Positions 2,342 through 22,827 of a DNA stretch of 32,000 nt are shown in pieces. This DNA is from Promethearchaeota archaeon (GTDB taxonomy: Archaea > Asgardarchaeota > Hermodarchaeia > Hermodarchaeales > Hermodarchaeaceae). The stretch spans positions 76,097 through 108,096 of the forward strand of contig JBHLMI010000005.1 in assembly GCA_048938295.1 (NCBI GenBank), written 5' to 3'. A program made the position numbers and the translations under genes. The notes under the pieces are model-generated. The model did no database searches. It was given only the letters and a program-made list of their open reading frames with translations, and had not been told where the DNA came from. Numbering within the stretch: position 1 is the stretch's first letter; every line of letters starts with the position of its first letter.

Positions 2342-5300
2342 ATGACCCCAAATGATGAGAAACCTCCAGCTGCTTTAAAAAAGGAAGAAAGTGCTGATCA
2401 AAGTGCAGCCTCCATTGAGATTTCGTCTGAGTTATTAACAGCGTTGCAGATGCCGTTTAAGCTCACGGAGTCTCAAAGTCGTGCTTATACCGTCTTGTTG
2501 GTATTGGGTCAGTTGACTGCAGATGAGATCAGCAACTATTCGGGTATCCCGATGACCAAGATAAAAAGCACCATTAAAACCCTTGAAGAAAAGCAGCTAA
2601 TCAAGCCCCTACCCGGTGTTGTCACACGCTACCGAGCATTTGCACCCTACAAGGAGCTTGCTGATGAAGTTCAATCGTTCACTAAAGACACTGAAAAATC
2701 TTGGAAAGAATTGCAAAAACTCCAGACACAAACGTTGAGCGAAATCCATGATGAGCTACAAACAATGACAAGGCAGACTCGCAGCGCCTTAGAGAACCTG
2801 AACGAACGGCAGGGAATTGCGTTAAACGAAGCGGCAATGGCTACTAACATTGTTTTAAGCAATGTTGCTGAAAACCTGCAGAAATCCTTGGATAACCTTA
2901 CAACGGAGAATGTGAATGATATCTCTGAACATACTACATCAATCCAACAGGCGCTCAGCACCCTCATTGATAAGGGAAGCACCCAACTAGATGCCGATCA
3001 ACAACTCGCCTTAGATGATGCATCAAAGGCAATGAGTGCCCACCAAGAAGAAACGAACCAATGGATTAGCTCCACATTGGAACAACTCTTAGATCAAACC
3101 TCTGGAAGTACCCAGCAAATTACAACCTGGTTAGATGACGCAAAGGCCCTTTTCGACCGTAACATTGATTTTAGCATGAAAAGCGTTGCGTCTGAAGTCA
3201 CTTCACAGAAAGTAGAAACCACGGATATCATCGAGGATACTGCGAATACCGTTACAGATGAAATTACAACCCACACTCAAGAGACACAAGGAGTATTAGC
3301 TGCTTTACAAAAGGAAACCAAACAGATTTTGACGAAACACCATCAGGAGCTCTCATCTCAAATACAAGATATGTGGGCACAGCAGACACAGGCTTTGGAC
3401 AATGCAATTATGGACCTCGAAAAAACCGTTCAAAAGGAAAATCAGCAACTAATTCAGGAGAGGGATACAGCTGCTGCAACAATGAATACAAAAATAAAAT
3501 CAGGGTGTGAAGACTCAATAAAAAGTATTGAAACGCTGTTTCAAGATTTAGAGAAAACTCAACAGCACGCTAGTTCCGAGTTACGACAACTCCACAAAGA
3601 AGCTGAAACGACCATTGCACAATGGCCTCCCTCATCACTGAATTTTTCACAATTCTCTAAAATCAAAACTACAACATCGAAATTAATCGAGCAAGTAAAA
3701 ACTGAACAAAATCAGCTGCTGGACAGCACAAGCCAAGATTTAGCCACTGAAATGCAAGATACCTACGTAGCAAGGCTTCTCGAAGTCCAGAACCTATTAC
3801 AGGCACTCATTGAAGAAGGTAAGTCACAGAAAACCAAGCTTACGGAAAATTTCAAATCAATTGCTGATCAAGTTGGACGACGACTCAAGCGCCGATTGGC
3901 TATAATACAGAAAACAGCCCAGACATTTCTATCGAATTTTCAGTCCAATGTGGATTCATTAGAAGCCCAATATCAGGCCCTTGGCAAACAAATGCAAAAA
4001 CTTCTCAAAAACGAGGCGAACGCCACTCTTAAAGCCCTCGAAGAAACTGAAGTCCAAATCAAGGAGCGCACTGACACCCGATTACTCCAGGCACAAGACA
4101 CCATAAATCAGTCAGCGCAAGAGAACCTGGCAAAAGCCACGAAAGAACAAGAGGGCAGTCTAAAACAAGTGAAAACCTTCCAAGCAGCAATGAAAAACAC
4201 AATTAAGGAAACAACTAAAGAATTACAGCAAGAATTTACCAAGCTTGAAGGTATCGTTAGGCAATATTCTGATGGAATTGAAAGTACAGCTGATAAGTTC
4301 CGTGCCGAACAAATTCTAAAAATCGAAACGGCAATTGAAAAATACCAACCTGCATTCACAAGGCTACAATCGACTCGTGATAATGCGATCACTCTCGCCA
4401 TGAATTCATTGGCAGCTCAGCTTACCAAACGACACCAAAACACTTTGAATGACTTCAACACCCTCATGTTAGAAAACATCCCAGTCTATGGCCTCTCAGC
4501 ACTGGATTCCTACCAAACTACTTTTCAAAAAAATGCAACCGCTCTAGAAACTGAAGCCTTATCAGCAACAGAGTCTGCAATCCTGAAGCAACTCACTGCA
4601 TCAGAACTCGAAACCATTGATACAGGGATTACAAAGGCTTTTAGCAAACAAATAGACGATGTTTCGGCGAGTCTCCAAGACTTCCTCGCAGGTCAACAAA
4701 CACTGCAGGATTCACAATCGGAAACTGCATTAAATCTAGCACAAGATGAGTTGATCGAAGTATTCGAGCAGCAAATCTCCAAACACAACGAGATGCTCGC
4801 GAAATCGTTCATAAGTAAACTAAAACCTGTTTTAAGCAAATGCAAAACCAAGATTTCAAAACAGATAAGCCGTGAAGAACAAATCAGCAAGATAATCCAG
4901 ACAACACACAAAAAGATCAAGACATCGCTCGCACCAATTGTAGCTAGACGTTCAAAGGCTATTCGTGATAAACTCGATGAAGAGCTCGAATCAACCTTTC
5001 AAACTCTTATCTCTCAACTAGAAAAACAGACCAACCAAGAAGCTAAAGTTACAGAGATTATCGACTCAACAGCGACCAATCTAGAAAAGTTATCAGAAAC
5101 CCAATTCAAGAAAGAGCCCAAGGAAAACCTAAACGAACAAGTATCGAATCTCCTGGCAATTTTCACTGAATACCAATCAGCCATAGAACGTCAACACATG
5201 ACTAATACAAAAAATATCACCACTAAATTTCAAGATTTGTTTAAAGAAATGATAGAGACAAGTTATGTAGGGAGCTTGAAATCACAGATAAATAGCCTGC

Positions 5301-7720
5301 TCCAAAAAACTTGCATAGAAGTGTTAAGGCTCTATCGAACAAAAATTGCGGCAGAACAGACAACCGTGATAGAAAAAGCAGAGGCAGCCTATCAAACTGC
5401 ATTAGATAAGCAACTCCGCACTCAAATGCAACCCAGAATCCATGAGTATTCAACCTCTGAAAGTCCAACAATCAACACTGTAATTGATGAAACAAAAACC
5501 GTTCTTGCCGAGACAACCAAAAATGCTGACGCAAACAGTCGAACTCTCATTGAAAAGTACTGGTTACCTCTGACAAAAATCATTGAGGAATATTCCTCTG
5601 TCGTAGTGGGTAACCTCACAGCTCTAAACACGGCTACCGGCTCTGCAGTCGACCAGACCACCATGAACGTCAACACGACCCTGACGAATTTCGAAGATGA
5701 CTCAAACAAGCTATTGTCAGCTACGGTTCAAACCTTTGATCGAGAAAAAAGTGCAATCAACGAGCAAATCACACAAAGTTTCACCGAATTGCAGGAGGAC
5801 TGCATCGCGCAGCTTCAAGAAGCTCAAACCCTCCTTGAAACATTGAATACTGATATAGTGGCACGAAAGGCTACAACGACAGAAAAAATCGAAAGCATGG
5901 CTGGAGAAATTGATGCCACGACGACCTCACACTATGCAACCACCCGAAAAATCACCAATGCCTTTGTAGAGAACGTCCAAACTGAGTTAGCAACCCAGGA
6001 AGAACGAGTTGAGAACCTCAAGAAAAATATCCAAGATCTAATCCACAAACAAGGAGTGGTCCTAAACGAGGGAGTGGATCGAATCCTAACACAACTGGTT
6101 GAGTTCTCGGAAACGCAAATACCAAAAATGCAAGGCATCATCGAAGAGAGCGGGCAAAATTACGTAAATCGCATCGAAGAGCAAAGAGCTAACACAGACC
6201 ACCACTTTGAAGAATTTGCACTCACTCTCTCGAAAGAACTAGACAAGTATACTTCAACATTACAACAAGAGCTAGAACAACTACAAACCATTACCTCGAA
6301 ATTAGTTGAGCAAATCGGAAAAGCCACTGACACTATTGATACAGAAATTACCAAAGAAACTGATACCAGCAAAGTGAACCTACTCAACACGATTAACGCT
6401 CAACAGCAGGTGTTGAATCAGGATATTAGCTCAACGTTTCAATCACTAGCCAAGAAAACACAACAAATTCAGGTCCAACTGCTAGATAAACTGAATCGTG
6501 TACGAGATGAAGGAAGAGAAGCACTTGACCAAGACCAGACCGAAATCACTACTGCCTTAGATACCACTCTTAACACGACAGTGAACAAAAAAGAACAAGC
6601 CATTCAAGCACAACTCGAAACACAGAAGGCAAAAAATCAAGCCCTGATCACTCAACTAGGCGAAACTCTGTCAGCCATTAGAGATAGCGTAACTACAACC
6701 TCAGATAGTCTCCAAGAATCAGTAACATCTGCGTTGATGAACGTTCAAGCCGAACTCATAAAAATTCACTCGAATTCAAGGACACTAATAGAAGAAACGG
6801 ATCAAACCCTTAGAACTGAGATAGGAGAGGAAGCTGAAAAGACTCTGCAAAGCCAAACCAAATCGATAGGTTTAACCGATTCTCGATTAAAGCGAGCAAT
6901 ACAGGATAGTATCCGCCGAACGAAGGAAAGCCTACAAAGTTTGAAAGGCACAGCATCAACTGATCTTCAGCAAAAGAACAAATCCTTTGTTGCATCCATC
7001 ACTCAGACACTAGAGAACGTTAAAGATGGGCTAATGACTCAAACTCAGCAAACAGGTAGGCGTATTAGTCGTACCCTGAGCAAAGAACGCCAAACTCTGA
7101 AATTAGAATATCAGACTCTGGAAAAAGAAATTACTACACGAGCTAAGACCGCCGAGACAACAGCCGTAAATTCGCTGCAGCTCTTCTCGACACAAACTGA
7201 GCCAACTCTAGACCGCTTGCGAACACAGGCAAGTCAAACGGAAGAAATTCTCATCGGTCTATGGGATACACTTACAAAACTAGAACCCGCTGAGGCTGAA
7301 CGAACTTGGCGTATTGTTACGTGCGAAGGGATTCAAAACCATTTGTTGGATATGTTGCGAAGAATTGACGAAACAATCACCTTGGTATATCCCTCGTTTG
7401 ATGAGGTGCCGGTAACTGAGCTGAGTAAGATTCAACCACAAAGCCGTGTACATATAATTACCACGTTGGATAGAGAAAAACAGCTGGCTAGTGCTCAGAA
7501 GCTCTTACAACAAGGGAATATTCGAATCTGGGATAACCCGAACATGGAGTTCTACGGTGGATCCAGGGATGGAGAAGAAGTTCTCATCGCACCCACTTAT
7601 GGAAATCAAGGGGAAATCGTTGCTGTCGTCAGCGACCAAGCAAGTTACATTGCATTATTCAATCAAACGCTAGGACCACGGTGGGTTTCCGCATCGGAGG
7701 AAATTCGTCTTCGAAGTTGA
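2342..7720 (+). CDS. 1792-aa protein: N-terminal TrmB-type winged HTH, about 1500 aa helical region, C-terminal TrmB effector (PLD-like) domain
   Basis: N-terminus LGQLTADEISNYSGIPMTKIKSTIKTLEEKQLIKPLPGVVTRYRAFAP is TrmB HTH-like. C-terminus WRIVTCEGIQNHLLDML...RDGEEVLIAP is TrmB C-terminal-like. The middle is Q/E/T/K/L-rich and poor in Pro/Gly. Confidence 0.75.
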   Translation: MTPNDEKPPAALKKEESADQSAASIEISSELLTALQMPFKLTESQSRAYTVLLVLGQLTADEISNYSGIPMTKIKSTIKTLEEKQLIKPLPGVVTRYRAFAPYKELADEVQSFTKDTEKSWKELQKLQTQTLSEIHDELQTMTRQTRSALENLNERQGIALNEAAMATNIVLSNVAENLQKSLDNLTTENVNDISEHTTSIQQALSTLIDKGSTQLDADQQLALDDASKAMSAHQEETNQWISSTLEQLLDQTSGSTQQITTWLDDAKALFDRNIDFSMKSVASEVTSQKVETTDIIEDTANTVTDEITTHTQETQGVLAALQKETKQILTKHHQELSSQIQDMWAQQTQALDNAIMDLEKTVQKENQQLIQERDTAAATMNTKIKSGCEDSIKSIETLFQDLEKTQQHASSELRQLHKEAETTIAQWPPSSLNFSQFSKIKTTTSKLIEQVKTEQNQLLDSTSQDLATEMQDTYVARLLEVQNLLQALIEEGKSQKTKLTENFKSIADQVGRRLKRRLAIIQKTAQTFLSNFQSNVDSLEAQYQALGKQMQKLLKNEANATLKALEETEVQIKERTDTRLLQAQDTINQSAQENLAKATKEQEGSLKQVKTFQAAMKNTIKETTKELQQEFTKLEGIVRQYSDGIESTADKFRAEQILKIETAIEKYQPAFTRLQSTRDNAITLAMNSLAAQLTKRHQNTLNDFNTLMLENIPVYGLSALDSYQTTFQKNATALETEALSATESAILKQLTASELETIDTGITKAFSKQIDDVSASLQDFLAGQQTLQDSQSETALNLAQDELIEVFEQQISKHNEMLAKSFISKLKPVLSKCKTKISKQISREEQISKIIQTTHKKIKTSLAPIVARRSKAIRDKLDEELESTFQTLISQLEKQTNQEAKVTEIIDSTATNLEKLSETQFKKEPKENLNEQVSNLLAIFTEYQSAIERQHMTNTKNITTKFQDLFKEMIETSYVGSLKSQINSLLQKTCIEVLRLYRTKIAAEQTTVIEKAEAAYQTALDKQLRTQMQPRIHEYSTSESPTINTVIDETKTVLAETTKNADANSRTLIEKYWLPLTKIIEEYSSVVVGNLTALNTATGSAVDQTTMNVNTTLTNFEDDSNKLLSATVQTFDREKSAINEQITQSFTELQEDCIAQLQEAQTLLETLNTDIVARKATTTEKIESMAGEIDATTTSHYATTRKITNAFVENVQTELATQEERVENLKKNIQDLIHKQGVVLNEGVDRILTQLVEFSETQIPKMQGIIEESGQNYVNRIEEQRANTDHHFEEFALTLSKELDKYTSTLQQELEQLQTITSKLVEQIGKATDTIDTEITKETDTSKVNLLNTINAQQQVLNQDISSTFQSLAKKTQQIQVQLLDKLNRVRDEGREALDQDQTEITTALDTTLNTTVNKKEQAIQAQLETQKAKNQALITQLGETLSAIRDSVTTTSDSLQESVTSALMNVQAELIKIHSNSRTLIEETDQTLRTEIGEEAEKTLQSQTKSIGLTDSRLKRAIQDSIRRTKESLQSLKGTASTDLQQKNKSFVASITQTLENVKDGLMTQTQQTGRRISRTLSKERQTLKLEYQTLEKEITTRAKTAETTAVNSLQLFSTQTEPTLDRLRTQASQTEEILIGLWDTLTKLEPAEAERTWRIVTCEGIQNHLLDMLRRIDETITLVYPSFDEVPVTELSKIQPQSRVHIITTLDREKQLASAQKLLQQGNIRIWDNPNMEFYGGSRDGEEVLIAPTYGNQGEIVAVVSDQASYIALFNQTLGPRWVSASEEIRLRS

Positions 7721-10974: not shown

Positions 10975-11057
10975 AGATGCCACACGCAAGTAAAGTAAGT
11001 AAGAACTAATAAGCCTGAGTAATTGTTAATGGTTTCGGAGTAAAGAGAATAGCAGAT

Positions 11058-11726
11058 TTGGTGTTGGGATTGCCGCAACATATTGCAGGTGTCGACGATG
11101 CAGGTCGAGGCCCTGTTATTGGACCCTTAGTGATTGCCGGAGTAGAAATAACAACATCTCAGGAAGATGCACTTATTGAATGTGGAGTTCGGGATTCAAA
11201 GACATTAAGTGCTCGTCGTCGTGAACTGCTAGCTCATCGAGTTCACAACCTCGCCAACAGAGTCGAGGTTCTCGAAATTAGTGCAAAACGAATTGATGCT
11301 GAACGAAAAAAGAACCGCAGCTTGAACATCTTAGAGGCAGAATGGATGGCACAAGTATTGAACCGACTCAGGTGGGATGTTGCATATGTTGATGCTTCGG
11401 ATGTGAACGCGGAACGTTATGGTCGGATCATTTCTTCGCAGTTAACCACGCCAAGAAAGATTGTCAGTGAACATAAAGCAGATTCAACATATCCAGTCGT
11501 TGCTGCCGCCTCAATCATCGCTAAAGTTCACCGCGATCAGCGGATTCGCGAATTCCACAAACAGTATGGTGACTTTGGGAGTGGCTATCCTAATGATCCT
11601 AAAACGAGATACTTTCTAATCAATTGGATTCGAAACAATAGCGAGTTTCCTCATATCGTACGAAAATCGTGGAAAACGGCACAGGAAATTCATGCCGCAA
11701 ATCGACAGGAAACTCTTACTGATTGA
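11058..11726 (+). CDS. rnhB: Ribonuclease HII
   Basis: Motifs GVDDAGRGPVIGPL, GVRDSK.LS, YVDASD, HKADSTYPVVAAASIIAKV and DFGSGYP.DP.T. Confidence 0.96.
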   Translation: MVLGLPQHIAGVDDAGRGPVIGPLVIAGVEITTSQEDALIECGVRDSKTLSARRRELLAHRVHNLANRVEVLEISAKRIDAERKKNRSLNILEAEWMAQVLNRLRWDVAYVDASDVNAERYGRIISSQLTTPRKIVSEHKADSTYPVVAAASIIAKVHRDQRIREFHKQYGDFGSGYPNDPKTRYFLINWIRNNSEFPHIVRKSWKTAQEIHAANRQETLTD

Positions 11727-11745
11727 AAAGCAGTGAAATAGGGAA

Positions 11746-13329
11746 TTAAGTAGCTTCCGTTTCTTCTTTCTTTTTCTTTTTCGCTTTCTTCTCTTCCTTC
11801 TTCCGTTTCTCTGCTTCCTTCCGCTGCTTCTCTTCCTCTTCCAAGCGCTTTTCCTCAGCCTTCCGCGTCTCTTCCTCTTCCTTCTTCTTCTGTTTCTCTG
11901 CTTCCTTCCGCTGCTTCTCTTCCTCTTTTAGACGCCTCTCCTCTTCCTTGCGTTTTTGCTCTTCTTCCTTCTTCTGTCGCTTCTCCTCTTCCTTCCGCTG
12001 CTTCTCTTCCTCTTCCAAGCGCTTTTCCTCAGCCTTCCGCGCCTTCTCCTCTTCCTTCTGGATGCGCTTCGCTTCTTTTTCATCAACTTCAAGTAACTCA
12101 GTGGTTTCTGGAGGTTCTGTCTCGGCAAGTTCAGGAGGTGGAGTCATTTCTGCTTCCATCTCGGGAAGTTCTTCTTCACCCTCTTCCTTCTTCCGTTTCT
12201 TGCGTTCCTTCATCTTCTCCCGCATACGCATATACGTCTCGCTGAGCAGCTCCAGATGCCGTTTCGCGATATCTGGATGAATGTCCTTGGCTTCTAAGCG
12301 TTCCTGAATGCGGAGCACCAAAAACTCAGGGAAAAAGGACTCAAAGTGCACATCAGCGGTTAACACAATCACTGGATCATCGTTGGCGGACACCTCAACA
12401 GTATTCTCGCCCATCTTCGTAATCACTTGTATTTGCTCTAACCGACGCAACACGTTATCTAGCGATGCTTCCTTCTCAACGACACCAACCAGCTCGGATT
12501 TATGCGCGATTTTCCGTCGCAGGGTCTTGGTTACATCATAGATGTCAGGATCAAGCAGCAGCTGGCCAATCATAATCGTATCTTCTTCGGTCCACTGATA
12601 CGCCTCGAAAAAGCGCTTCACTTGTTCCTCATATTCAGCATACTGTTGTTTGTTCAAACCACCACTCTTGGCCAATTTTAGCGATTGTTCAGGGGGAAAC
12701 CGTGCCCCGAGTAAGTCATTGACCATAAAGACACAGTTATCAGATACCGCATTAATCCAATCCTCTTCCACTAGCCCACTACGCAATAAGGGCAACGTTA
12801 CCAGACCCAAGTCTGGATAGTGCTTCCCGGTCTGCAGCTCAAGCCACTCCCGTAGCTCTTCGGCCGAAATCCCACCCCGAGATAATTTGTGCATGAGCAA
12901 CCGGGTTTCCTGATCTACGAAGACTTTGGCAAGCCGCTGCTCCACCGACAGCTCCACCATCCGCTTCAGCTTCTCAAATACTTCACCCAGATACTCCACA
13001 AACTCGGGCTCACCAATATTCTCTACAATCTCACTCGATGCAAGCGTCAACCCCTCCTCATATGCACGCGGCTCCTCATCCAGCTCCATAAACAACATGA
13101 TACAGAACTGATCACGGCCACGAAGAATCCCAGTGTAAAAACTACTCACCGCCAGATTCGTTCCTTCAAGCGTCATCGTCAGAAACCCCGCCTCGGGTTT
13201 ACCCATCGCATGCGCAGTGAAGACCCGCAACATATCATCTTCAGAAACTTCAAGATTACGAGGATACACCCCGACGATACGAAGCCCGACCTTGTCGTCC
13301 CACCGACATATGCTTAGACCTTTTGGCAT
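11746..13329 (-). CDS. Longin/uDENN-like domain + probable tandem winged helices + E/K/R-rich charged helical tail
   Basis: Starts MPKGLSICRWDDKVGLRIVGVYP behind a GGGAG RBS (the ORF-track extension to 13488 is rejected). Two wH-like blocks (GGISAEELREWLE...PLLRSGLV; DNVLRRLEQIQVI) and a 111-aa charged tail follow. Confidence 0.7.
   Translation of the reverse strand: MPKGLSICRWDDKVGLRIVGVYPRNLEVSEDDMLRVFTAHAMGKPEAGFLTMTLEGTNLAVSSFYTGILRGRDQFCIMLFMELDEEPRAYEEGLTLASSEIVENIGEPEFVEYLGEVFEKLKRMVELSVEQRLAKVFVDQETRLLMHKLSRGGISAEELREWLELQTGKHYPDLGLVTLPLLRSGLVEEDWINAVSDNCVFMVNDLLGARFPPEQSLKLAKSGGLNKQQYAEYEEQVKRFFEAYQWTEEDTIMIGQLLLDPDIYDVTKTLRRKIAHKSELVGVVEKEASLDNVLRRLEQIQVITKMGENTVEVSANDDPVIVLTADVHFESFFPEFLVLRIQERLEAKDIHPDIAKRHLELLSETYMRMREKMKERKKRKKEEGEEELPEMEAEMTPPPELAETEPPETTELLEVDEKEAKRIQKEEEKARKAEEKRLEEEEKQRKEEEKRQKKEEEQKRKEEERRLKEEEKQRKEAEKQKKKEEEETRKAEEKRLEEEEKQRKEAEKRKKEEKKAKKKKKEETEAT
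11805..12041. repeat. Imperfect 87-bp (29-codon) tandem repeat, about 3 units, in the charged tail
   Basis: An exact 54-bp match at 11814-11867 and 11988-12041 (offset 174) and an exact 36-bp match at 11805-11840 and 11892-11927 (offset 87). Confidence 0.9.
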
Positions 13330-13514
13330 ACTTTTAAACTCCCGTTTATTCAAATAAGTTCTGTAGCTATGGGTTTTAAAGTGACCCGTTAACACTCGGT
13401 TTTGACTATCTGGATTCCCGTATTTAACTTGTTTGTCGGTTCCGGTATTCCGAGGTTTCCGGTTGTTGCTTTCTGCAATTTTTCGCAAGAAAAATGAGGA
13501 TTATTGAGATCTGG

Positions 13515-14384
13515 CTAGTCTGTGGTCGCTTCTGCCACTGCACCGAGGATGATTTTATAGAGGATTTCGCGGTATCGGGGATCGATGGCGACGAGTCCGT
13601 AAGCTTGCACGCCGAGGATGCGTTGGACGAGTTTGGGTGCGAGGGCGCCGGGGAGGTCTTGTTTGTTGGCGATGGCCCAGACGATGGAGGAGGGGGAGTT
13701 TTTGCGGACAACTTCGAGGATGTCGCGGGTTTCGAGGACGTTTTTGAGGGTGGAGTCAGTGACGAGTAAGACGGCGTCGGCGTTGCGGAGGTAGTAGTTC
13801 CAGAGGGAGCGGAAGCGATCTTGGCCAGCGAAGTCCCAGACGGCGAGTTCGTAGGGACCGAAGCGGACGCCTTGGAGAGTTTCGATGTCGACGGCGATGG
13901 TGGGATAGTAGTCGCCGGGAATGCTTTCGGCGGTGAGGAGTTTGAGCATGGTTGATTTGCCGACCCCGCCTTGGCCGAGGAGGCAGATTTTGAGCATGGT
14001 GACGATGACGTTATCAAGTTCGGCGCCAAAGCCTTTGAAGGCTTCGCCGAGGGGGACGGGGGTTTGGATGTAGGCGTCGATTTCGTGGCCGAATTTGGTA
14101 AGGAGGAGTTCCTGGGTTTTTTTAAGTGTGCCTTTGATTTTTTCGTCTTCGTCGTTCATGTCGACGGCGAAAACGAGGAGGAGGTGAGTGCCGGCTTCTT
14201 TGTAGATGAATTTAATGTTTTTGACGTGAATGGGCAGATCGACTTGGCTACCGAGTTCGGATTCGAAGTGTTTGTAGGTGGCAAGAAATTCTTGTCGTTC
14301 TTCAGAGGAGATTTCCACTGACCAGTATTGGCGGTGGAAAGCAAGGCGGCCATCTCGGGTCATGATGAAGACGTTGTGAATCAT
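13515..14384 (-). CDS. Longin domain fused N-terminally to an Arf/Rab-like small GTPase
   Basis: G1 GQGGVGKST, G2 PTI, G3 WDFAGQ, G4 NKQD; G5 region is atypical (LVAID). N-terminal MIHNVFIMTRDGRLAF...LLLVFAVD...F.GF..ELD..I is longin/sigma-adaptin-like. GGAG RBS before ATG 14384. Confidence 0.88.
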   Translation of the reverse strand: MIHNVFIMTRDGRLAFHRQYWSVEISSEERQEFLATYKHFESELGSQVDLPIHVKNIKFIYKEAGTHLLLVFAVDMNDEDEKIKGTLKKTQELLLTKFGHEIDAYIQTPVPLGEAFKGFGAELDNVIVTMLKICLLGQGGVGKSTMLKLLTAESIPGDYYPTIAVDIETLQGVRFGPYELAVWDFAGQDRFRSLWNYYLRNADAVLLVTDSTLKNVLETRDILEVVRKNSPSSIVWAIANKQDLPGALAPKLVQRILGVQAYGLVAIDPRYREILYKIILGAVAEATTD

Positions 14385-14406
14385 GGAATAGTGTTTCTCC
14401 TTTTGG

Positions 14407-15426
14407 TTATTCGGCGCGGGTAATGGCTTTTTCTTGAGGTGTAGCGCGTCGCTGTCGTTGTTTGTAATGGGGGAGCTTTTTTTCATCCGAACTCAGGAGG
14501 TTACGGAGCTCCCGATAATTGCGACGCAGTGAGGTACGTGAACAACCCACGAGTTCGATTATATCGTTTTCGGGTATTGAATCCCCGGTTTGTTTTGCGC
14601 TATAGTAAGCAATGGAAGCAGCAATGATTGGGCGTGGATGCCCTTGGAAGAGACCTTCTTGTCCGACATATTCAACGATGTTGTGAGCGTATTCCTCAGT
14701 TTCCGGTTCTATCTCCAAAATTGCGAACAGGCGATCGAGTATAGCATGGACTGGCTCAGCCCAGGCGCCAGATTTGGTGTCTTTAAACTTTTGTCGTTCT
14801 TGATCGTAGTCTTCAAGGATGCGTTGGATTCCGGCACGGACCAACTGGCGAGCGTTGGCAAGTTGGTTTTGGCGTTGGCGTCGAATATAACGGGGGCATT
14901 GGGGGTATCCGGGCATGTCATAGATGGTTAAATAGCATTGTTTCTTAACCACACGGCAAAAAGACGTCATTTTATCAGTTTTTATGGGTCGCTCATAGAC
15001 GTAGGGGCATAGTGATTGGTCACGTGACCCACCCCTACGTTCAATTTTTCTGTAGCTATCCGAAAGAATCTGCCGATACCGCCGTTTTCTGTTTGTAGGG
15101 TTCCCGCTTGTTTTTGTTATTCGCTGCAGTGTCTTGAGGAGAATCTCCTCATAAGGGGAGCCCTCTTCTTCAGCTGTAAGCAGTACGAAGAGACAGATAT
15201 CGTCTTCAGCACCATCTCGCATGAAACGCGTGCATACAACTGCTGCACGTTCCTTAACGTCTTTGGTAGGAAAAATTTGAAATGTGGTTCCTAGGTCCTG
15301 AGGGGCACTGCCATAATACATCATCGACATGTCGGTGACCTCAAATTCCAATGAACCAGGATACTTGGATAGTATCTTTAGTCCTTCTTTGGTATCCCAT
15401 TGACTAACGACGAGGCCCCGAGGGAT
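14407..15426 (-). CDS. Longin/uDENN-like domain + Cys4 motif + TFB/TFIIB cyclin repeat fusion (probable ATC start)
   Basis: The frame is open upstream of TTG 15351 as IPRGLVVSQWDTKEGLKILSKYPGSLE, homologous to the 13329 gene start. C-x16-C-x6-C-x12-C motif. C-terminal GHPRPIIAASIAYYSAK...IIELVGCSRTSLRRNYREL is a TFB cyclin repeat with HTH. Confidence 0.72.
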   Translation of the reverse strand: MPRGLVVSQWDTKEGLKILSKYPGSLEFEVTDMSMMYYGSAPQDLGTTFQIFPTKDVKERAAVVCTRFMRDGAEDDICLFVLLTAEEEGSPYEEILLKTLQRITKTSGNPTNRKRRYRQILSDSYRKIERRGGSRDQSLCPYVYERPIKTDKMTSFCRVVKKQCYLTIYDMPGYPQCPRYIRRQRQNQLANARQLVRAGIQRILEDYDQERQKFKDTKSGAWAEPVHAILDRLFAILEIEPETEEYAHNIVEYVGQEGLFQGHPRPIIAASIAYYSAKQTGDSIPENDIIELVGCSRTSLRRNYRELRNLLSSDEKKLPHYKQRQRRATPQEKAITRAE

Positions 15427-15576
15427 GATGAGTCACCTTCCATGCAGACAGAGCTATAGTTTACGAAGTTGTTACTTGGCTTAAGTCAAAGTTTGGAAAC
15501 GCCACAGAAAAAGGTTTTTGCACATCGGAAGGTACCCTCAATTCATTCCGAGATACTGAAACCACCATAAAACACG

Positions 15577-16758
15577 CTAATGGGTTCTAAGCCTCCAAAG
15601 TAGAAGTACAATAACGACAGAAATACCCAGAATCGTAAATCCCAACATGAAAGGAAATAGCTGGTCCCATCTCGATGTAGGAAGACTAACTGAATTACCA
15701 ATTATTGCCGGGTAGATGAACTCATCGAAATATGCATAGTATTCTTCTGAGCTATAGGGGGCGGCACCAAAGGCAAGAACAAGATCCTCTTGGGGAAGTA
15801 CAAAAACACGCATACCGCCTGCGCCTCTCATTGAATAACCGGAGATGGGAAGATCAATCCACCACTGATAGCCATACCCTTCCCCATACGTAAAGACAAA
15901 GTGAGGATATGTGCACTCAACAATCCATTCAGCGGGGAGAAGTTGTGAGACCCCCCATGTGCCGTTATTCAGATAAAGAAAAGCGATTTTTGCCAAGTCA
16001 CGTAAGCTCAGGCTAAGGCCCGCCATACCTGTCGTGACTCCTTGCGGATCATCACCCCATTCGTATGTTGAAATGCCCATGGGAGTGAACAGTCTATCAT
16101 GCACAAGGGTTTCCATTGACAACCCTGTTGTTTCCGAAATAATTGCTGATAGGAGATGACTGCAGCCTCCATTATAGTTCCAAAAGCTACCGGGTTCATT
16201 CGACATGGGTGAATCGAGGAGATATTGGACCCAATCAGGTTTTGCCCCCAACCCAAAATCACTGCGTTCCAAACCTGATGACATGGTGAGAAGATGCCAT
16301 ATTGACATGGTGGATTTCCAGGGATCCGGGTTTTGAATAGTTCGATTTGGAAAATAATCAAGAACGGAATCGTTAACACTAGCCACTAATCCATCCGCTA
16401 GAGCTAGCCCAAAGGCAGCCGCGGAGACACTTTTTGTGCATGAATAGATACGCCAAAGTTGACTTGGACTTATGCCCTGGGCGTAAGCTTCAAACAGAAT
16501 ATACCCATTGCGAATGAGCAGAAAACCTTGCACATTGTCAATGGAAGATATTGTGTGCCAGAATGCCTGTAGCAGGGTAGAATTCATTCCTTGTACTTCA
16601 GGTTGGACACCACGCCAGCCTGTGGTAGGCCAATAATCTCTTGGGAAATCTATATTGTGTAGAACACTTGGTTCATAATTGATGGCTAAGGGAGCCAAGA
16701 GAAGGAAAGTAAACAAAATAAACCATTTTGTTTGTAGAACCATCATCGACCCGACCAA
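15577..16758 (-). CDS. Serine hydrolase (beta-lactamase/AmpC-like fold) with signal/TM N-terminus and C-terminal TM anchor
   Basis: SxxK motif SCTKS, LLTMSSGL, PGSFWNYN, LF.PMGI, RDLAKIA.LYLN.G.W and GYGYQWW. Hydrophobic segments at both ends. Confidence 0.88.
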   Translation of the reverse strand: MVGSMMVLQTKWFILFTFLLLAPLAINYEPSVLHNIDFPRDYWPTTGWRGVQPEVQGMNSTLLQAFWHTISSIDNVQGFLLIRNGYILFEAYAQGISPSQLWRIYSCTKSVSAAAFGLALADGLVASVNDSVLDYFPNRTIQNPDPWKSTMSIWHLLTMSSGLERSDFGLGAKPDWVQYLLDSPMSNEPGSFWNYNGGCSHLLSAIISETTGLSMETLVHDRLFTPMGISTYEWGDDPQGVTTGMAGLSLSLRDLAKIAFLYLNNGTWGVSQLLPAEWIVECTYPHFVFTYGEGYGYQWWIDLPISGYSMRGAGGMRVFVLPQEDLVLAFGAAPYSSEEYYAYFDEFIYPAIIGNSVSLPTSRWDQLFPFMLGFTILGISVVIVLLLWRLRTH

Positions 16759-22499: not shown

Positions 22500-22793
22500 C
22501 TAACTGGACTGAATCGACAGACCCCTTACAAGCTGTTTGTACCCCGTTTGAATGGTACTAGCGGACACCCCGGTTGCTTGTCCAATAGCCTCCTGTGTCC
22601 GTCGTTCGTTTTCTAAAATACACGCAATGTATAGCGCGGCAGCCATGAGGCTTTCCGGCGCCTTCCGCACCGTCAACCCTGCCTGCTCTGCATCTATAAG
22701 AATCAGTTGCGCACGCTCCCGCGTTTTCGACGACAATCGCAGCTCATCAATATAGGGAGCAAGATCGTATTCAGAGATTTCGGGACTATTCAT
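22500..22793 (-). CDS. Stand-alone TFB C-terminal cyclin repeat (97 aa)
   Basis: ELRLS.KTRERA..IL..AE..GLT..KAPESLMAAALYIAC.LENERRTQ..I....GVS..TI...YK.LV matches the second cyclin repeat of archaeal TFB. GAGGTGA RBS 5 nt before ATG 22793. Confidence 0.82.
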   Translation of the reverse strand: MNSPEISEYDLAPYIDELRLSSKTRERAQLILIDAEQAGLTVRKAPESLMAAALYIACILENERRTQEAIGQATGVSASTIQTGYKQLVRGLSIQSS

Positions 22794-22827
22794 CTGATTC
22801 ACCTCACTCATCGCGAGTAAGGTTCCC

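Follow-up and report, generated by a model that had tools for sequence, protein, structure and literature searches.

Three neighbouring genes, here called genes 1, 2 and 3, lie head to tail on the minus strand of a 32,000-nucleotide (nt) stretch of DNA (the window; contig JBHLMI010000005.1, positions 76,097 to 108,096) from the 2.5-Mb, 66-contig genome of a Promethearchaeota archaeon of the family Hermodarchaeaceae (GCA_048938295.1), and the protein encoded by each begins with a longin domain. We propose, with moderate confidence, that this cluster is a small-GTPase switch module of Hermodarchaeota, in which a longin platform regulates or reads the GTPase encoded by gene 2. Hermodarchaeota are Asgard archaea and relatives of the ancestors of eukaryotes; in Asgard archaea, small GTPases of eukaryote-like type and longin proteins number in the dozens. 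The cluster and its rearranged relatives name a trio to test, an Arf-like GTPase and two longins of the class behind the GATOR1, folliculin and C9orf72 GTPase-activating proteins (GAPs). Should the two longins prove to regulate this GTPase, GAP action by longin heterodimers would be older than eukaryotes. The fusion of one longin to a TFB repeat, found in Hermodarchaeota only, hints at the target of such a switch in an organelle-free cell. An earlier reading of this DNA from its letters alone (the sequence-only reading) had described three co-oriented genes with N-terminal longins, gene 2 lying 22 bp downstream of gene 1, and both the arrangement and the 22-nt spacing were borne out (coordinates in Table 1).

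The G domain of gene 2 was compared with Pfam and with proteins of known structure. The results showed matches to the Pfam families Roc, Arf and Ras (E-values 1e-17 to 1e-20), with an Arf score of 70.9 bits (cut-off 22.3) against 30 bits for Gtr1_RagA, and the best PDB matches were Arf1 and Arf2 (E ~1e-18). The motifs, read from the sequence, were intact (P-loop GQGGVGKS, a T in switch I, DFAGQ and NKQD). The N-terminus of gene 2 matched Pfam Clat_adaptor_s (E 7e-5, just above the cut-off), and its family profile matched the longins of AP-3 mu, AP-4 sigma and AP-2 sigma (E 1.6e-4 to 3e-3). This 125-residue longin takes the place of the N-terminal amphipathic membrane-binding helix of Arf, which gene 2 lacks. 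Its database orthologues were likewise 289 residues long and aligned with full coverage. These results support the earlier assignment of gene 2 as a longin-GTPase, with an Arf-like G domain and, by sequence profile, an adaptin-type longin. Five GTPases of the gene 2 subfamily occur in the genome, among 28 small-GTPase matches.

The longins of genes 1 and 3 are paralogous to each other. By hand count, 15 of the first 33 positions are identical, the figure given in the sequence-only reading, and BLASTP aligned the two proteins over 130 residues with 25% identity (E 5e-11). AlphaFold models were obtained for gene 1 (22 homologues; mean predicted local distance difference test score (pLDDT) 78.6) and for residues 1-385 of gene 3 (57 homologues; pLDDT 94.7, predicted template modelling score 0.89). 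Both models contained a five-stranded sheet in the order beta-beta-alpha-beta-beta-beta-alpha-alpha, which is the longin topology. In VIA-align comparisons, the gene 1 longin (residues 1-136) was closest to the Lokiarchaeal longin 8yqg_B (Z 13.5) and to NPRL2 (9o5d_D, Z 13.2), and the gene 3 longin (residues 1-126) matched NPRL2 (9o5a_H) with Z 12.9 and a root-mean-square deviation (rmsd) of 2.5 Å over 123 residues, followed by 8yqg (12.5), Lst4 (11.8), yeast Npr2 (11.8) and chains of the FLCN complex (11.4). Generic longins (VAMP7, Ykt6, Sec22 and sigma adaptins) scored Z 9-11 against gene 3. The N-termini of genes 1 and 3 thus model as longin folds of the NPRL2/FLCN/C9orf72 kind (Z 11-13.5), the structural outcome that had been expected of them. 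In neither protein is the longin followed by a DENN domain; a four-cysteine (Cys4) element and a cyclin repeat stand there in gene 1, and winged helices in gene 3.

The beta1-beta2 region of both longins carries a W-D-x3-G motif. In the gene 3 family (57 sequences), the W was present in 49/57, the D in 47/57, the G in 54/57 and a P in 56/57, and the W-D...G motif of gene 1 was invariant wherever the N-terminus was present (22 sequences). Candidate catalytic arginines were found in both proteins, in gene 1 R67, conserved to at least 90% in its family, and in gene 3 R70, which did not vary among 12 Hermodarchaeota loci; the catalytic arginine finger is R78 in NPRL2 and R84 in Npr2. WD and GP motifs in the beta1-beta2 region define GAP longins (PMC12290439), and in C9orf72 the corresponding W33-D34...G38-P39 lies on the face that holds ARF1 (PMC8213707, PMC12290439). 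C9orf72 W33 and D34 contact ARF1, and GAP activity is lost in the W33G/D34K mutant (PMC8213707).

Beyond the longin, the gene 3 model consists of a winged helix, two linker helices, a second winged helix and C-terminal helices. NPRL2 has a winged-helix-like C-lobe. The top five Foldseek matches of gene 3 in the PDB were GATOR1 Nprl3 and Nprl2 chains (E 9e-5 to 7e-4), aligned over 290-470 columns with a high global rmsd. The winged helices gave profile matches to the ArsR-type 1uly_A (E 1.6e-4) and to Mnd1, and the AlphaFold DB neighbours of gene 3 were named ArsR-family regulators and, more weakly, Folliculin/SMCR8 longin proteins. Pfam returned no family for gene 3 and no NPR2 or NPR3, and the 57 family members had only weak helix-turn-helix matches. 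The earlier description of gene 3 as NPRL2/folliculin-like therefore stands, given the NPRL2/NPRL3 layout and the GATOR1 chains at the head of the Foldseek matches. The gene 3 core defines a family of 263 representatives, found in 113/151 Asgard genomes with up to 11 copies per genome. It also forms the C-terminal 360 residues of proteins of 1330-2548 residues (P0100, P0114, P0119, P0125, P0127, P0139 and P0191). The charged tail of gene 3 may form a single alpha-helix; its length varies among orthologues (open frames of 432-584 residues), the core being 75-97% identical.

The C-terminal parts of gene 1 are of a different kind. Its four cysteines were invariant in 22 sequences, at a spacing that, as read from the sequence, differs from that of a zinc ribbon, and the hairpin modelled around them (E143-149/E152-157) had low to moderate pLDDT. 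The region of Cys4 element plus helix had an isoelectric point (pI) of 9.1-10.9 in 22/22 family members, and the tail was also basic. For the cyclin repeat, all PDB profile matches were TFB or TFIIB, the best Foldseek match was 1ais_B, and VIA-align gave Z 13.9 with Pyrococcus TFB (1d3u_B; rmsd 2.6 over 102 residues), 13.8 with human TFIIB and 12.6 with Brf2. Using hhalign, we aligned gene 1 with five of the six TFBs of this genome (E 6.8e-6) over their second repeat, which reads the B recognition element (BRE), helix-turn-helix included; beyond this repeat hhalign gave no confident alignment, and no B-reader or B-linker match was found. Gene 1 also lacks a CxxC...CxxC zinc ribbon and the first cyclin repeat. 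The helix-turn-helix stretch was the most invariant part of gene 1, which has 71 invariant residues in the 22 sequences, and its pattern T-S-L-R-R-N-Y-R-E-L was invariant. By profile, hhalign, Foldseek and VIA-align, the C-terminus is thus of TFB type, in agreement with the sequence-only reading. Six full-length TFB genes are present in the genome, two of them adjacent on one contig. In the window, a stand-alone open reading frame (ORF) of 103 residues (22500-22811, minus strand) encodes just one TFIIB repeat (Pfam E 2.6e-13, above the cut-off; pI 4.9).

We then considered how widely the three genes occur and whether they stay together. Gene 1 had 42 database homologues, all at least 49% identical and some named 'cyclin family protein', and orthologues were present in 18/18 genomes of its family. 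A pattern scan of 185,579 species genomes returned 17 gene 1 loci, ten labelled Hermodarchaeota or Hermod and the rest labelled other Asgard or uninformatively. Gene 1 was found only in Hermodarchaeota. All 17 Hermodarchaeota loci, from two genera, had the order gene 1-gene 2-gene 3 as far as their contigs extend, so that the three genes were co-located in all relatives with gene 1, as the synteny check proposed with the sequence-only reading had anticipated. The gene upstream of gene 1 differs between the two genera, being of unrelated kind in the first. In the second genus (L039-L042) an extra longin-GTPase paralogue directly adjoins gene 1, ~100-1050 nt upstream; this paralogue is ~54% identical to the gene 2 G domain, and at a first-genus locus (L035, 1845-2711) it lies 3.3 kb upstream.

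Linkage at greater distance was assessed in 30 loci from 10 other Asgard families, which are non-independent samples. In 12 places, no more than 2 kb separated a GTPase related to gene 2 (39-51% G-domain identity) from a member of the gene 3 family. The density of such GTPases near the gene 3 family was 0.90 per 10 kb, compared with 0.19 at greater distance within these loci and 0.11 in this genome overall. The adjacency was seen in 6/10 of the other families, in varying orders and orientations. L065 has a clear gene 2 orthologue (starting MIHNTF) at a distance of one gene from a gene 3 orthologue, and at L054 and L055 the GTPase is bracketed by two gene 3 family paralogues; the L055 GTPase is a longin-GTPase, which gives the same plan as here. 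At L055 (45-9315), the first gene 3 paralogue follows a gene for a 1682-residue surface protein, the cytoplasmic tail of which is Glu/Lys-rich like the gene 3 tail here, and a 147-residue membrane protein that shares its juxtamembrane motif W-K-x-[IL]-G-L-S-L precedes the second paralogue. The present genome contains three longins of the class of genes 1 and 3, and the gene for the third starts 32 nt after that of a Rab-like GTPase (177 residues). This third longin (L073, 935-2418, on another contig) has 305 residues, the GP motif FDQKMGP, a probable winged-helix region recognised by eye and several CxxC zinc ribbons. Between the two Hermodarchaeota genera, change is slow in the gene 2 G domain (84% identity) and in the gene 3 longin (80%), and fast, at similar rates, in the longins of gene 1 (45%) and gene 2 (50%). 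This pattern would fit contacts of gene 3 with the G domain and of gene 1 with the gene 2 longin, as a hint only.

In the mechanism we propose, gene 2 would be the switch, an Arf-like GTPase with all catalytic motifs present and an adaptin-type longin of its own. The longins of genes 1 and 3 would dimerise and form a docking platform for the gene 2 G domain, the nucleotide state of which they would set or read, since both are GAP-class longins, their W-D...G motif corresponds to the ARF1-holding face of C9orf72, and the GTPase is Arf-like. The likeliest action would be stimulation of GTP hydrolysis, with R67 of gene 1 and R70 of gene 3 as candidate arginines. Gene 3, whose tandem winged-helix lobe resembles that of NPRL2, would act as the partner conserved across Asgard archaea. 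Gene 1 would be a lineage-specific partner in which the probable Cys4 metal site, the basic helix and the TFB-derived cyclin repeat take the place of this lobe and would link the switch to a nucleic acid or to the transcription apparatus. Genes 1 and 2 would be co-transcribed, gene 1 being translated at a low level from AUC or AUU, and gene 3 would be expressed from its own promoter. The folds, paralogy, domain orders, conservation and gene neighbourhood are observed; from them we infer the physical complex, its GAP direction and its output.

Several observations weigh against this proposal. In both longins the residue after the Gly of W-D-x3-G is not Pro, so that the Pro of the GP motif is missing. 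The R70 loop of gene 3 is gapped or mostly absent elsewhere in its family, and the arginine is conserved within Hermodarchaeota only. By hhalign, the gene 2 longin has no profile relation to longins of the gene 1/3 type. The flanking genes for RNase HII, DedA and the SSB-like OB protein are also conserved within Hermodarchaeota, and synteny there is weak evidence on its own because these downstream and flanking genes are kept as well. Finally, gene 3 seems to have its own promoter. The stop of gene 1 and the start of gene 2 (MIHNVF) are separated by 22 nt that contain an AAGGAG ribosome-binding site, and the gap between genes 2 and 3 measures 185 nt. A terminator-like hairpin and its T-run lie downstream of gene 2, and a TATA-like box lies upstream of gene 3 (Table 1), with a GGGAG ribosome-binding site, also read from the sequence, between the box and the ATG. 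Genes 1 and 2 therefore probably share a transcript, and gene 3 probably has its own. The description of the cluster as 'self-contained' in the sequence-only reading is thus overstated, given two probable transcripts.

The direction of the proposed action is tentative, because the gene 3 arginine is not family-wide and the GP Pro is missing; a role as scaffold, guanine nucleotide exchange factor (GEF) or effector is as open as a GAP role. The longin pair might thus be an exchange factor, a passive docking scaffold or an effector, like Mon1-Ccz1, TRAPP, DENN or the SRX longin with GTP-bound SR-beta, and we regard this as possible, if short of probable. Most longin platforms are GEFs (PMC10933270), generic longins fall just 2-3 Z units under GAP longins in the gene 3 comparison, and the relatives of gene 3 that are fused to or follow giant surface proteins would suit an adaptor. 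Against these points, the closest matches of genes 1 and 3 in structure and motif are GAP-class longins, the WD motif corresponds to the GTPase-holding face of C9orf72, and R67 is conserved in the gene 1 family and R70 of gene 3 within Hermodarchaeota. That the three genes are neighbours by descent only, or that gene 1 is decaying without a normal start codon, appears very improbable. The surrounding genes are indeed syntenic in Hermodarchaeota, and in strain MK-D1 GTPase genes generally lie outside operons with longin genes (Tran et al., PMC10933270); yet the adjacency recurs in distant Asgard families with the order rearranged, genes 1 and 2 are 22 nt apart, and gene 1 shows a ratio of nonsynonymous to synonymous substitution (dN/dS) of 0.073, 71 invariant residues, and a ribosome-binding site with ATC or ATT in 17/17 loci.

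As to the output, the sequence-only reading had GTPase signalling 'wired directly to promoter recognition'. In that case gene 1 would bind promoter DNA at a BRE-like site, or TBP, and the nucleotide state of gene 2 would switch this binding via the longins. The alignment with the BRE-reading repeat of TFB, the invariant helix-turn-helix stretch, the basic Cys4-plus-helix region in all members together with the basic tail, and the order of Cys4 element, helix and cyclin, which recalls the zinc ribbon, linker and cyclin of TFB, all speak for such a device. TFB paralogues moreover diversify in this lineage, as judged from the six full TFBs and the stand-alone TFIIB repeat. Nevertheless, the match of gene 1 to Pfam TFIIB (E 0.016) reached 15.6 bits, under the cut-off of 23.6, and the repeat is therefore a divergent TFIIB relative; CDK cyclins, with Z ~12, score just 1-2 Z units under TFB. 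The gene 1 model has a single cyclin repeat, without the TBP-contacting first repeat, whereas the full-length TFBs of the genome have two each, and the CxxC ribbon and any B-reader or B-linker match are lacking. The gene 1 cyclin domain is acidic or of variable charge (pI 4.7-7 in most members), compared with pI 9.3-11.2 in 9/10 repeats of five of the genome's six TFBs. Cyclin folds often act as protein-binding modules, and no conserved palindromic operator was seen upstream of gene 1 in 13 aligned loci. We therefore regard the earlier claim of direct wiring as overstated and consider the transcription device unlikely. Direct promoter binding by gene 1 seems a little less likely still, and we would hold out small hope for the fullest version, in which an Arf-lineage GTPase directly controls Asgard transcription initiation through a longin pair that reads gene 2 and gates the TFB-derived gene 1. 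If true, it would be a prokaryotic path from GTPase to promoter with no described counterpart, and would place longin GAP machinery in gene regulation before membranes.

The module that we propose resembles several known systems in part. Like C9orf72-SMCR8 (CSW, a eukaryotic ARF1 GAP), it would cup an Arf-type GTPase between two paralogous longins, with W-D-x3-G of genes 1 and 3 matching W33-D34...G38 of C9orf72 and a candidate arginine on the partner; unlike that complex, it has no DENN domain, no GP Pro and no WDR41-like subunit, its GTPase carries its own longin, and it is known from sequence and models. With NPRL2-NPRL3 (GATOR1/SEACIT; FLCN-FNIP/Lst7-Lst4), gene 3 shares a match to Nprl2/Nprl3 along most of its length, with a longin N-lobe and a winged-helix-like C-lobe, as well as its best longin Z, to NPRL2, and the eukaryotic proteins are also paralogous pairs. 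The differences are that gene 3 lacks Pfam NPR2/NPR3, that the equivalent of NPRL2 R78 is not conserved in its family, that no DEPDC5-like gene is present in the cluster, and that the GTPase is Arf-like instead of a Rag heterodimer with roadblock domains. The NPRL2-NPRL3 layout is found in gene 3 only, gene 1 being without the winged-helix lobe. In MglA-MglB, too, one prokaryotic operon encodes a small GTPase, which is Ras-like, together with a regulator from the roadblock/longin superfamily, a GAP that is a roadblock homodimer; here the regulator is a longin and not a roadblock, it would be a heterodimer of multidomain paralogues, and the GTPase is Arf-like with a catalytic Gln. Gene 1 resembles TFB/TFIIB in its C-terminal 100 residues, which show the cyclin fold of the second TFB repeat with the BRE-reading helix-turn-helix; it differs in having one, mostly acidic, repeat, an N-terminal longin and no zinc ribbon, B-reader or B-linker.

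The sequence-only reading knew of no described system with this architecture, and this held in part. Longins of the FLCN/SMCR8 type that carry GAP-like motifs have been published from Asgard archaea (Traffic 2025, PMC12290439), as have longin-GTPase fusions (Tran et al. 2024, PMC10933270). Both come from the same lineage and represent the same protein classes, and gene 2 has the longin-GTPase architecture described for the fusions. Partners of Asgard GTPases and longins could not be assigned from gene order, operons not being the rule (PMC10933270). In contrast to those reports, in which no partner was assigned, a specific GTPase is here bracketed by two longins, and genes 1 and 3 carry WD...G rather than GP plus Arg, a true GP-type member lying elsewhere in the genome. 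What is new is the three-gene layout and gene 1 itself, which combines a GAP-class longin, a Cys4 element and a TFB repeat with a non-canonical start, and which we found in no paper and in no genome outside the lineage.

Table 1. Positions of the three genes, their domains and nearby elements in the window
Feature	Coordinates	Strand	Description
Conserved non-coding blocks upstream of gene 1 (three)	15542-15560, 15505-15521, 15475-15492 (15475..15560)	-	Invariant columns in 13 aligned loci
Start region of gene 1	15424..15441	-	Ribosome-binding site GGAAGGTGA (contains stop TGA), 6 nt, then ATC start; conserved across orthologous loci
Gene 1	14407..15426	-	339 residues: NPRL2/C9orf72-type longin, Cys4 element, basic helix, single TFB-like cyclin repeat, basic tail; ATC start
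Gene 1 longin domain	15034..15426	-	Residues 1-131; W11-D12...G16 in beta1-beta2 loop, R67 near beta4-beta5 turn
Gene 1 Cys4 element	14896..15009	-	C140, C157, C164, C177; C-x16-C-x6-C-x12-C; modelled as beta hairpin; probable metal site
Gene 1 long basic helix	14788..14895	-	Residues 178-213; invariant R179, R182, R185, Q188, N191, R193
Gene 1 cyclin repeat	14482..14787	-	Residues 214-315, five helices; nearest to C-terminal TFB repeat including helix-turn-helix
Gene 2	13515..14384	-	289 residues: adaptin sigma/mu-type longin (residues 1-125) and Arf-like small GTPase (residues 126-289)
Terminator-like hairpin	13478..13495	-	ATTTTTC-TTGC-GAAAAAT and T-run, 20 nt past gene 2 stop; 7 bp; read from the sequence, putative function
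TATA-like box	13374..13380	-	TTTAAAA, ~50 nt 5' of gene 3 ATG; read from the sequence; kept in relatives; putative function
Gene 3	11746..13329	-	527 residues: longin, winged helix, helical linker, winged helix, C-terminal helices, Glu/Lys/Arg-rich tail
Gene 3 longin domain	12955..13329	-	Residues 1-125; W10-D11...G15, P23; R70 in beta4-beta5 loop (Hermodarchaeota)
Gene 3 tandem winged-helix region	12334..12945	-	Residues 129-211 and 248-332, helical linker between
Gene 3 charged tail	11749..12174	-	Residues 386-527, Glu/Lys/Arg-rich; 47 K+R and 54 D+E in 142 residues

The start of gene 1 is unusual. Its frame opens after an in-frame TGA (15435-15433), with no ATG, GTG or TTG before IPRGL, and the program that listed the ORFs begins gene 1 only at 15351. 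An ATC at 15426-15424 aligns with Met1 of gene 3 (MPKGL start). In 17/17 orthologous loci from the two genera, gene 1 starts with ATC or ATT, and AGGTG stands 7 nt before it. In 13/17 loci, AGGTGA lies 6 nt upstream, its TGA usually closing the frame, and likewise in 13/17 there is no room for a canonical start between the stop and IPRGL. Compared with the nearest relative, all three genes are under strong purifying selection (dN/dS 0.073 for gene 1, 0.069 for gene 2 and 0.053 for gene 3). Because the start and its ribosome-binding site are conserved and selection on gene 1 is like that on its neighbours, the hidden N-terminus is real, and a near-cognate AUC/AUU start is the simplest reading. 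Its conservation suggests that translation of gene 1 is deliberately weak or regulated, and it offers a clean comparative case for non-canonical initiation in archaea. A frameshift start, from an out-of-frame ATG at 15443 followed by a slip, was rejected, as this ATG occurs in only 2/13 aligned loci and ATC/ATT with the ribosome-binding site is universal. A pseudogene was ruled out by the dN/dS of gene 1 and its invariant residues.

The three blocks upstream of gene 1 are nearly invariant and read TTCAGTATCTCGGAA, GCAAAAACCTTTTTCTG and AAC.TTGA.TGAAGCCAAG. They may be promoter, terminator or translational leader elements. RNAalifold predicts pairing between the ribosome-binding site, GGAAGGU, and an ACCUUUU in the middle block (7 bp, no covariation). 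A structured leader was rejected, as just this 7-bp pairing was found and covariation was absent. A scan for bacterial promoters and terminators gave no signal above shuffled sequences, Rfam over 11000-16000 (E up to 1) returned no known RNA family, a search of the window with gene 2 as query found no second GTPase, and the Protein Atlas searches yielded sub-threshold leads only.

The genes flanking the cluster are of unrelated function. RNase HII, a VTT/DedA membrane protein, the SSB-like OB protein and a DNA ligase are encoded on one side, and a beta-lactamase-like hydrolase on the other. Elsewhere in the window (2342-7720, plus strand), a 1792-residue ORF has an N-terminal TrmB-type winged helix-turn-helix followed by a very long A-rich, probably coiled-coil region. 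This ORF has a weak apolipoprotein-like match and coincides with a strong AT-skew plateau at 3-7 kb.

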